This document shows, in pieces, positions 7,007 to 15,672 of a DNA stretch of 18,246 nucleotides (within the stretch, counting starts at the first letter, position 1; every line of letters starts with the position of its first letter). The notes under the pieces were generated by a model. It was not told where the DNA came from. It did not search any database and saw only the letters and a program-made list of their open reading frames with translations. This DNA is from a virus (Duplodnaviria > Heunggongvirae > Uroviricota > Caudoviricetes): positions 1 to 18,246 of the IMG/VR virus record IMGVR_UViG_2609459834_000002. One strand, 5' to 3'. A program made the position numbers and the translations under genes.

Positions 7007-7329
7007 ACTTTCAGGCCCCTCTCATGTAACCAGTGGGTTGCACGCAGCCTGGCGTTTTCCTCACCGGCAAGCAGTGAGCGGATAATCCCGACCGCCTCGC
7101 TGTCGTCGTCCTTCACCGCGGTATGAAGAGTGATACCCCGGGCCACGCCACGCTTTATCGTGATGACGCCTTTTTTCTCCAGTGCGCGAAGATGTTCCAC
7201 CGCTGCATTCACTGAACGGTATCCCAGCATGGTTGCCACCTCCTGATTGGTTGGCGGGAAGCCACGTTCTTTCTGGTAAGAAATCAGCATATCCAGCACC
7301 TGCTGCTGGCATTGAGTTAACGTCGTCAT
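7003..7329 (-). CDS. LexA-type N-terminal DNA-binding domain protein (no peptidase domain)
   Basis: 108 aa; LTQCQQQVLDMLISYQKERGFPPTNQEVATMLGYRSVNAAVEHLRALEKKGVI resembles the LexA winged-HTH. No S24 protease motifs. ATGA-coupled on both sides. Confidence 0.6.
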   Translation of the reverse strand: MTTLTQCQQQVLDMLISYQKERGFPPTNQEVATMLGYRSVNAAVEHLRALEKKGVITIKRGVARGITLHTAVKDDDSEAVGIIRSLLAGEENARLRATHWLHERGLKV

Positions 7330-7979
7330 GCCGCCATCTCCCTGACCAGTTTTTCCGCCTGCTGGCGAACCTGCGCCAGAAACGCCTCACCACATGCCTC
7401 AAGTTCATCACGCCCGATGTAGCTGATTGCCGGTCCCTTCCAGGTCTTGTCGAAAACAGCAATAGCACCAGCGAAGAAAGCGCCTGTCGGCACCTGCTTC
7501 TCGTCCTTCGGTATAAACCAGGCAGGCAGTTCAAAACCAATACGCCCGCGAATAAAAGCAATATGATCTGCATCTTCCGGCCACCACACTTCGCTGGTGG
7601 CCGCTTTGATCAGGAAAACATAGCGCCCGCCCTTATCACGCATGGCACTGGCATGTTTCATGATGTAACGCATGCCGGTGATGTATTGCCCCTCATGCTG
7701 ACTGGCGCGGCTGTATGGGGGATTACCAAAGGCAGCACCTTTAAGCTCCGCAAGACGTTCTGACCAGTCATGCGCCAGCGCGTTATCTTCCGCCGTGTAA
7801 TACGCGGCACATTTGGCGTTATCACCGTCAGTAAACAGATCCAGAACAAACGGGCCAAACAAGGTGTTAATTCCCCAGAAAATGTTATCCGGCGTGCGCC
7901 ACTGATCGCCCACTTCCTTCAGTTCATGGGCTGGTTTGTTCCGCAGTTCCACCAGCGCCTGGCAATATTTATTACTCAT
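7326..7979 (-). CDS. Phage DNA N-6-adenine methyltransferase (Dam family)
   Basis: Start assigned to ATG at 7979-7977 (MSNKYCQ...), which overlaps the upstream TAA as TAATG. Contains the catalytic NPPY motif (FGNPPYS). The track start at 8012 is an in-frame upstream extension. Confidence 0.85.
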   Translation of the reverse strand: MSNKYCQALVELRNKPAHELKEVGDQWRTPDNIFWGINTLFGPFVLDLFTDGDNAKCAAYYTAEDNALAHDWSERLAELKGAAFGNPPYSRASQHEGQYITGMRYIMKHASAMRDKGGRYVFLIKAATSEVWWPEDADHIAFIRGRIGFELPAWFIPKDEKQVPTGAFFAGAIAVFDKTWKGPAISYIGRDELEACGEAFLAQVRQQAEKLVREMAA

Positions 7980-14562: not shown

Positions 14563-14817
14563 ATGAATCATATCGAATTTATTGAGAAGAACGTCAGGGA
14601 AATCCTTATAAAACAAGGCTTTTCTTCTTCAGTAGCGCAGGGGGGGGCATGGCAAGCGATTGATTTATATAAGCGCATGTCACAAGCCAGTAAAAAGGGT
14701 GCAATTTTTGATGACGTGATGAGGCATGCGAAAGCATGGGCAGATAAACAGGTTTCGAAAACTGAAGTCACGAAAAGTAAACGCAATCAACCTAAAAACC
14801 AAGGTGGTCTGTTTTAA
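14563..14817 (+). CDS. Hypothetical protein (84 aa)
   Basis: Track ORF 14521-14817 begins at TTG; trimmed to ATG 14563 (MNHIEFIEKNV...). Weak RBS. Basic C-terminus. No family recognised. Confidence 0.45.
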   Translation: MNHIEFIEKNVREILIKQGFSSSVAQGGAWQAIDLYKRMSQASKKGAIFDDVMRHAKAWADKQVSKTEVTKSKRNQPKNQGGLF

Positions 14818-14869
14818 ATATTCAGGCCAATAAGTTTGCGCGGTGCAGCGCGCCAATATGGAGAAAACC

Positions 14870-15196
14870 ATGAGCTACATTCAGACATTATCCGGTAAAA
14901 AATTTAACTACCTGACCGCCACAATCGACGATATCGATGTAGAGGATATCGCGACGGCGCTTTCCAACATCTGTCGATTCGCTGGGCATCTCCCAGAGTT
15001 CTACAGCGTGGCTCAGCACTCTGTGCTTGTAAGCCAGATTGTGCCGCCAGAGTTCGCCTTTGAAGCGCTGAAATTCGATGACTTCCAGATTGTCCACTAT
15101 GGCGGTTCTGAGGATTACGCGAAAGGTTATATCGACTGCCAAAACAACTACAACAAAGCTCTGACCGCCGCTGGCATTGGCGTGAAGGGGAAGTGA
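14870..15196 (+). CDS. HD-domain-like protein (YfbR-type 5'-nucleotidase fold), short and with the HD dyad altered; possibly degenerate
   Basis: ATG at 14870 with GGAG RBS 6 nt upstream (MSYIQTLSGKKF...). Motif CRFAGHLPEFYSVAQHS resembles the first metal-binding region of HD hydrolases, but the expected L-H-D-A motif reads EALKFDD (His replaced by Phe). The protein stops at 108 aa, against roughly 180-200 for intact HD domains. Confidence 0.45.
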   Translation: MSYIQTLSGKKFNYLTATIDDIDVEDIATALSNICRFAGHLPEFYSVAQHSVLVSQIVPPEFAFEALKFDDFQIVHYGGSEDYAKGYIDCQNNYNKALTAAGIGVKGK

Positions 15197-15197
15197 G

Positions 15198-15672
15198 ATG
15201 GCGGAGCAAACCATTTTAGACATGTGCTGCGGTTCCCGCATGTTCTGGTTCAACAAGCAGGACACCCGCGCCGTGTTCACTGATATCCGCGCCGAAGAGC
15301 ACGAGCTGTGCGACGGTCGCCGCCTGGTTATCAGTCCAGACCTGATTGCCGACTTTCGTTCACTGCCGTTCGCTGATTCTTCTTTTCCGGTTGTGGTGTT
15401 TGACCCACCGCACTTGGAGCGCGTTGGCCAGTCTGCCTGGATGGGTAAAAAATACGGGCGACTGAACAAAAAAAACGTGGCGCTCTGACTTACGCGCCGG
15501 TTTCAAAGAAGCGTTTCGGGTGCTGTGGCCACGCGGCGTACTTATTTTCAAATGGAACGAAACACAAATCCCAGTGAGCCAGATTCTGGCGCTTACAGAT
15601 GTGAAACCTGCAATTGGCCAGCGTACCGGGAAGAACGATAAAACCCACTGGATTATTTTTGTGAAGGACTAA
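15198..15672 (+). CDS. Small SAM-dependent DNA amino-methyltransferase (DPPH motif) interrupted by a +1 frameshift at an A8 tract
   Basis: Frame 0 (15198-15488, 96 aa) carries motif I LDMCCGS and motif IV FDPPH and stops at TGA 15486-15488. The +1 frame is open from 15466 to the TAA at 15670-15672, ending 3 nt before the next ATG. The only region open in both frames (15466-15485) contains the A8 run at 15468-15475. One fewer A would give a single product of about 156 aa. Confidence 0.6.

Follow-up and report, generated by a model that had tools for sequence, protein, structure and literature searches.

A probable recent one-base insertion at a recurrently mutating A run splits a conserved small prophage methyltransferase gene in Escherichia coli

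The window (the whole stretch of 18,246 nucleotides analysed here) is the complete contig JNPE01000165.1 of E. coli 2-156-04_S1_C3, and it carries a methyltransferase gene distributed over two reading frames. The features concerned, with their positions in the window, are the following.

7326-7979, minus strand: intact phage Dam-type N6-adenine methyltransferase (PF05869, 217 aa)
14843-15196, plus strand: upstream deletion chimera, residues 1-76 of an HD-type dNMP phosphatase (phrog_318) joined to the last 41 aa of a 176-aa protein, junction at about 15071/15072
15198-15488, plus strand: 5' part of the methyltransferase gene, 96 aa (KDV93545.1), with motif I LDMCCGS and motif IV FDPPH, ending in NKKNVAL then TGA; PHROG 954/11564 'DNA methyltransferase'
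15447-15452, plus strand: A6 run in the same gene, used as internal control; frameshift here in 0 of 182 homologous loci
15463-15465, plus strand: TGA of the +1 frame, upstream limit of the segment 15466-15485
15468-15475, plus strand: A8 homopolymer; the in-frame state of orthologues is A7 (AAC AAA AAA ACG, N-K-K-T), hence a +1 insertion
15476-15672, plus strand: 3' part of the methyltransferase gene, now in the +1 frame (TWRSDLRAGFKEAFRVLWPRGVLIFKWNE...FVKD, TAA at 15670-15672), which encodes helix 94-108 and the remaining Rossmann beta-strands and has no further lesion
15486-15488, plus strand: premature TGA of frame 0, reached owing to the extra A

Frame 0 begins at an ATG (15198-15200) that adjoins the stop codon of the upstream gene (TGA, 15194-15196) and is preceded by a Shine-Dalgarno-like stretch, GAAGGGGAAG, at 15184-15193. 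The +1 frame, closed by the TGA at 15463-15465, is open from 15466 to a TAA that falls 3 nucleotides short of the next ATG (15676). Both frames are open together only over the 20 nucleotides from 15466 to 15485, and this segment holds the A8 run; no other stretch of A or T in the window is longer than 7. Removing one A from it yields an unbroken ORF of 157 aa. The earlier note on this DNA, which had described a methyltransferase split exactly at the A8 run, is matched base for base in coordinates, frames, motifs and overlap, and the second, Dam-like methyltransferase that it reported as intact is indeed so.

From the repressor to the prophage end, the early arm encodes RdgC, an 84-aa protein, the truncated phosphatase, the methyltransferase, a 184-aa protein and an exonuclease. 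Across loci, the neighbours of the methyltransferase are phage early genes (RdgC, HD phosphatase, Ead/Ea22, exonuclease, DnaT, DnaC-like), and no restriction or specificity gene was present in any neighbourhood examined, so that the methyltransferase is an orphan. The gene directly upstream is an in-frame chimera in which the phosphatase part is cut directly before the HD motif; about 1.19 kb is missing relative to a related locus (L330), and the 176-aa protein that provides the C-terminal 41 aa precedes the methyltransferase in other prophages. Taken with the A8 run, the chimera means that at least two lesions affect the early arm of this isolate, and we counted it in favour of a pseudogene.

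What the intact gene would encode was examined on the restored protein. The AlphaFold2 model (pLDDT 95, pTM 0.89) is a bare Rossmann core with the seven strands and the N-terminal glycine-rich SAM-binding motif of class I enzymes, and all Foldseek matches of probability 1.0 are class I methyltransferases. In an alignment of 97 diverse homologues, D8, D29, P47, P70, P71 and R107 are invariant, and D8, C11 and G12 are conserved. The sequence FDPPH (residues 68-72) fits motif IV, (D/N/S)PP(Y/F/W/H), with D69 and H72 kept in at least 90% of these homologues. Assignment by sequence to a curated family or a solved structure fell short of a firm match: Methyltransf_11 of Pfam narrowly misses its threshold (20.7 bits for a cutoff of 21.2) and Methyltransf_25 scores 19.8 for a cutoff of 27, no NCBIfam model comes near its cutoff, and PDB sequence searches return generic class I matches only. 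Searches of the PDB and of the literature, by accession and by topic, gave no characterised close relative and no paper on the family. PHROG 954, 'DNA methyltransferase', matches with E = 2.5e-85, PHROG names being annotations.

The best structural neighbours of the model, with TM scores of about 0.6 and identity below 20%, are PH0226, Trm11 (m2G tRNA), Bud23 and M.TaqI. The arrangement of a Rossmann class I fold in which an N-terminal SAM motif is followed by a (D/N)PP(Y/F/H) loop is shared with Trm11 (m2G10 tRNA, 6zxv), M.TaqI (m6A DNA, 1aqi) and the RsmD-like HI0767 (2ift), but identity to these proteins is below 20%, with TM scores of about 0.5-0.6. Moreover, whereas M.TaqI has 382 aa, the catalytic core fills all 157 residues of the model and leaves no separate target-recognition domain. 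As modelled, the protein would be an amino-methyltransferase-like core without a recognition domain, and its nearest motif-IV matches include RNA m2G enzymes (Trm11, RsmD-like). DNA is its putative substrate, as suggested by the PHROG 954 annotation and the DPPH motif.

In the model, K91 and K92, encoded by the tract, lie in a loop, and truncation after 96 aa takes away helix 94-108 together with strands 109-155. No active enzyme is therefore expected from the A8 allele, and its 96-aa product should be inactive, to judge from the model. An enzyme assembled from two pieces, namely the 96-aa product and a 50-aa ORF starting with GTG at 15520, was considered and found unlikely, given that helix 94-108 would be missing and that the arrangement is not conserved.

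The family is large: a search of 5.8 billion proteins gave 6579 homologue clusters, and a scan of species representatives found relatives in 243 of them. Comparison of orthologues, one of the checks that the earlier note had proposed, was informative on the ancestral state. Most members of the family read N-K-E/D-T at the position of the tract (AAA GAA or AAA GAC), that is, an interrupted AAAGAN without a run. In an enterobacterial subclade, codons 90-93 are AAC AAA AAA ACG (N-K-K-T), which creates an A7 in frame. The nearest species representatives (Citrobacter pasteurii, C. youngae and Citrobacter sp.) carry A7 and are intact, with 94-96% protein identity. In-frame relatives thus carry either A7 or the interrupted AAAGAN, so the A8 of the window represents a +1 insertion.

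The insertion appears, as judged from sequence, to be recent and non-programmed. The full enzyme of roughly 156 aa anticipated by the earlier note is recovered as a 157-aa protein whose sequence is the same as that of a public, intact one (P0146, named from Citrobacter freundii and found in 50 index blocks), and the corresponding gene differs from that of the window by five synonymous substitutions in 474 nucleotides, plus the extra A (99% DNA identity). Two loci of the P0146 type share the chromosomal insertion site of the window (zur-csbD-dinF-lexA side), but identity between their host flanks and those of the window is no more than about 80%, which assigns these loci to another genus.

Within the N-K-K-T subclade, the second lysine is encoded by AAA in 78 of 78 copies and never by AAG, a count that is weak, as the copies are related and the sampling pattern biases it; such invariance could hint at retention of the run. 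Several other arrangements were seen among homologues. In Phytobacter sp. V91 (L013:3241-3300), the sequence TTG AAA AAA AAC ACA (L-K-K-N-T) contains an A8 that is in frame and represents the intact state there. Many homologues (P0004, P0006, P0013, P0028 and others) have 248 aa: the 157-aa core is the same, the terminal FVKD followed by a stop is replaced by FVKGGDQQ, and about 91 residues follow, so that their C-terminus is either naturally longer or fused to an ORF downstream. On an IMG/VR contig (L145:10150-10430), homology to the methyltransferase starts at about residue 86 (...GRLNKKTWRS...), just upstream of A7; the sequence before it is unrelated, which places a mosaic or recombination junction directly beside the tract. 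In a Salmonella locus (L356:2-604 and 601-1077, allele P0162), a 200-aa MT-A70 family methyltransferase (PF05063) lies upstream with a 4-nucleotide overlap, giving tandem methyltransferases.

Homopolymers being classic sites of error, the question arises whether the isolate is truly A7, its gene intact and the eighth A a product of sequencing or assembly. The exact A8 product of the window allele is known from one sample only. The A8 is also present, at the assembly level, in the Logan assembly of run SRR1186799, obtained with a different assembler; both assemblies appear to derive from the same sequencing of the isolate, however, and so are not independent confirmation. A record with several homopolymer indels in the same gene does exist, that of Salmonella phage SW-37, and the A6 call of phage Oslo (see below) may likewise be an error. 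On the other hand, two different assemblers agree on A8, neither assembly has the scattered homopolymer indels of the noisy SW-37 record, and A8 is certainly real elsewhere, in an E. coli lineage where 233 index blocks, drawn from numerous projects and platforms and including complete genomes, contain it. We therefore regard an artefact as quite improbable.

As to SW-37 itself (L006, CP051275), its record contains several single-base indels at short C/G runs between 1500 and 2020, in addition to the A7 tract; those in the methyltransferase look like sequencing errors at homopolymers, not like real variation of the phage.

In E. coli, indel rates climb exponentially with homopolymer length (PMC8510543). 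The lengths taken by the tract in nature were sampled on IMG/VR contigs fetched with a pattern that permits any tract length. Among the in-context copies, 74 had A7, two had A6 and two had A8, the off-frame alleles being in different backgrounds: one A6 copy (L201) is 2 nucleotides away from an A7 allele, and one A8 copy (L168) is 8 nucleotides away from another. About 95% of tract-bearing copies, and all copies with an interrupted tract, are single in-frame ORFs. An A6 also explains the short CDS (378 nucleotides) annotated in phage Oslo. The protein database holds further truncated products of the A8 type, with three different tails (NVAL*, NVAF* and NVAYRF...). Every frameshifted copy found by tblastn has its break in the tract; the A6 run 16 nucleotides upstream is unbroken in all of them. 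Since A6 and A8 alleles have arisen independently in several backgrounds, we conclude that the tract is a real indel hot spot. The family also has damage of other kinds: a Shigella copy contains several stops, L180 has lost an internal segment, and some copies are truncated.

To estimate how frequent the off state is, the A6 and A8 products were predicted for the four most-sampled A7 alleles and looked up as exact sequences. P0161 (4332 index blocks) has one A8 contig and two A6 contigs, and P0162 (1072 index blocks) has one A8 contig; no A6 or A8 product was found by this look-up for P0163 (475 index blocks) or P0147 (201 index blocks). Off-frame alleles thus make up less than 0.1% in these four heavily sampled A7 alleles. 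The exact A8 product of the window was found in this one isolate only.

E. coli contains a second A8 allele, L001, which is the nearest E. coli orthologue of the window gene (93% DNA identity) and is present in four complete genomes; the sister allele of E. coli 2018-10-1CC is labelled 'class I SAM-dependent methyltransferase, frameshifted' by PGAP. On the 3' side of the tract, read in the restored frame, window and L001 differ by 16 synonymous and no non-synonymous substitutions, and an exact A7 version of each of the two alleles is present in public data, where no A6, A9 or A10 version of either was found. The two genes therefore diverged while intact and gained their A8 separately. Common ancestry of the two A8 tracts with later decay is ruled out by the same observations, and the sequences point to two independent and recent events.

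A larger group is formed by a Rac-like E. coli prophage lineage (RecE, KilR, YdaS/T, DnaT), in which the A8 allele P0136 is found in 233 blocks, with several different late-gene modules. Its A7 twin, P0160, is found in 26 blocks and is named from Citrobacter only. Across ten A8 and ten A7 loci of this lineage, the gene is 100% identical apart from the tract. Over 4.5 kb, the A7 haplotype is one SNP away from each of two A8 haplotypes. Barring recombination, an A7 placed between two A8 haplotypes requires either two insertions or one true reversion from A8 to A7, which makes the tract more dynamic than a one-way decay model would have it. As a rough inference, tract changes in this lineage would occur on a time scale of one or two substitutions per few kilobases. 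This would be fast for a single site, yet orders of magnitude below the rates of 1e-3 to 1e-2 reported for phase-variable loci (PMC7383803).

Three truncated variants of 97 aa from the E. coli A8 lineage (P0137, P0139 and P0142) carry non-synonymous changes, among them D69Y in the DPPH motif of P0139. These changes fit relaxed constraint after the frameshift, bearing in mind that comparison at the protein level hides synonymous variants.

Could the run nevertheless be a contingency locus, in which A7 and A8 are kept for reversible ON/OFF switching of the prophage methyltransferase, as the earlier note had proposed for what would be a second, switchable modification activity? Several observations are in line with this: A6, A7 and A8 alleles all occur in near-identical backgrounds, to the point of full identity outside the tract in the ten A8 and ten A7 loci above; the Rac-like haplotypes are compatible with an A8-to-A7 reversion; the sampled A8 alleles have no secondary lesions; the lysine codons of the tract are always AAA; and short runs of the G7 type phase-vary in some species (PMC7383803). 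However, A7 dominates the sampled alleles, off-frame copies staying at the level given above, and the one lineage rich in OFF alleles, the Rac-like one, is uniformly A8 in E. coli, where this state is stably inherited, its A7 twin being named from Citrobacter only. In addition, a run of 7-8 bases is under the 9-base criterion used for phase-variable methyltransferases (PMC7383803), most family members have the interrupted AAAGAN and no run at all, and the gene is an orphan whose neighbourhoods lack a restriction partner.

By the standards applied to phasevarions, tract polymorphism between ON and OFF among strains is present (A6, A7 and A8), but a tract of at least 9, ON and OFF states that are both common within a lineage, and a Type I/III restriction-modification locus are all absent. 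The locus differs from phasevarions in that its tract has 7-8 bases, not 9 or more, that the gene is an orphan in a prophage, and that its off alleles occur either as rare singletons or as the fixed state of a lineage, not in a balanced mixture; its host, E. coli, is mismatch repair proficient, and known cases of switching at short runs come from other organisms. What the two have in common is a methyltransferase frame set by tract length, with on and off alleles among strains (Type I/III mod, hsdM, hsdS; PMC7383803). A frequently mutating site, with purifying selection against its off alleles and an occasional one becoming fixed, would yield rare singletons and one fixed lineage; from a contingency locus, ON and OFF forms side by side would be expected instead. 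Phase variation therefore appears unlikely.

The run might also be used at the level of expression, the A8 allele still yielding full-length enzyme if RNA polymerase drops one A or adds two, or if ribosomes shift by +1. Eight As are at the lower edge of the lengths on which E. coli RNA polymerase slips (PMC6260861), and in some bacteria 8 As are perhaps productive (PMC1088944). Moreover, the downstream frame is intact and was formerly under purifying selection, and a modest hairpin in the window allele ends 3 nucleotides 5' of the run (z = -2.1). Repair of the frame by loss of one A in the RNA, however, is an event that E. coli RNA polymerase did not produce on the poly(A) runs tested (PMC6260861), and the signal of purifying selection is accounted for by the two exact A7 twins. 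On A runs shorter than 8, Koscielniak et al. detected no slippage by this polymerase, and insertion at A7 amounted to 0.39% (PMC6260861); selection against runs is evident from 9 nucleotides onwards (Baranov et al., PMC1088944). Orthologues are in frame, which means that there is no conserved decoding strategy and that a conserved recoding arrangement is absent.

RNA structure and ribosomal frameshifting lead to the same view. The upstream terminator-like hairpin, possible in only 10 of 38 distinct alleles, is not conserved and was discarded as a signal, as was a downstream stimulatory structure, the RNA 3' of the run being unremarkable (fold z = +0.45). A -1 ribosomal shift on the A run was likewise rejected, for it enters the frame ...KKRGALTYAPV... 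instead of the conserved one, and we infer that no slow A-site codon favours a +1 shift. A conserved out-of-frame arrangement, a run of suitable length and direction for the host polymerase and a conserved RNA structure, which together characterise programmed recoding, are thus all lacking. Systems rescued by transcriptional slippage, such as mboIIM2 deltaA356 in E. coli (PMC6260861), tssM of Citrobacter rodentium (PMC4256274) and IS elements with A9 (PMC1088944), resemble the present case in that an A run in principle permits repair of the frame in the mRNA; they differ in that the run here is shorter, that the A loss needed is undetected for E. coli RNA polymerase on poly(A), and that the orthologues are in frame. 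Dependence on slippage, raised by the earlier note, thus seems very improbable.

The explanation that we consider probable is that a recent A7-to-A8 insertion by replication slippage inactivates a conserved small prophage methyltransferase at a recurrently mutating site. The starting gene would be a conserved prophage class I SAM-dependent methyltransferase of about 157 aa with a (D)PPH amino-methyltransferase motif, in which codons 90-93 (AAC AAA AAA ACG) would have provided the A7 run of the enterobacterial subclade. Slipped-strand mispairing during DNA replication would then have added one A in this E. coli isolate, and translation would stop after 96 residues, ahead of helix 94-108 and of the remaining Rossmann beta-strands. 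Reversion to A7 would be possible at ordinary mutational rates, with no sign of a dedicated or high-frequency switch. Among the possibilities offered by the earlier note for the split gene (phase-variable, slippage-dependent or decaying), it is the last that is retained, along with the anatomy, the one-base repair and the instability of the tract (A6, A7, A8), while the first two are not.

The case resembles frameshift pseudogenes due to homopolymer indels, which PGAP labels 'frameshifted': the same single-base change in a run, intact orthologues, and a product cut within a conserved domain. It departs from an ordinary one in that the site is struck repeatedly, in both directions (A6 and A8) and in independent backgrounds, so that it is better described as a hot spot than as a single lesion. 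Events of this kind are ordinary; what is added here is the record of a hot spot within a widespread family.

A more speculative proposal, which we hold to be doubtful, is that the A7 run acts as a low-frequency reversible 'fuse', by which a prophage of broad host range sheds or regains its methyltransferase when it changes host. Both alleles for which exact twins are known have their A7 form named from Citrobacter and their A8 form in E. coli, and the position of the Rac-like A7 haplotype, one SNP from either A8 haplotype, is in keeping with changes that are repeated or reversible. Methylation-dependent restriction, with which the enzyme would conflict in some E. coli, is a possible driver. 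Counter-selection by E. coli hosts as a general rule is weakened by the other E. coli that carry intact members with an interrupted tract.

For annotation, the consequence is that the 96-aa 'methyltransferase domain protein' and the 97-aa product (148 E. coli contigs) each correspond to one half of a gene with a frameshift, and that A6 and A8 calls in this family reflect a genuine recurrent hot spot, not random noise. In itself the finding is a minor one; it would carry more weight if the tract toggled this very widespread family. The family itself, a 157-aa DPPH core enzyme without a recognition domain, is arguably of more interest.

Two further observations concern the surroundings of the gene. 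The only G8 of the window (14640-14647, plus strand) lies in frame (...VAQGGAWQ...) within the 84-aa gene at 14563-14817 (phrog_4439), of which two homologue copies were fetched, and is potentially another indel hot spot. The prophage end, seen on L088:11646-15326 (the window from 16843 onward plus the host flank beyond it), adjoins genes for DUF2713 (235 aa) and an 84-aa product, together with zur, csbD, dinF and lexA, and this arm of the prophage contains no integrase. The insertion site is one that we take, from the E. coli K-12 map, to be the yjbM/yjbL-zur neighbourhood near dusA, a known integration hot spot, and related prophages in another genus (L329, L332) use the same site.
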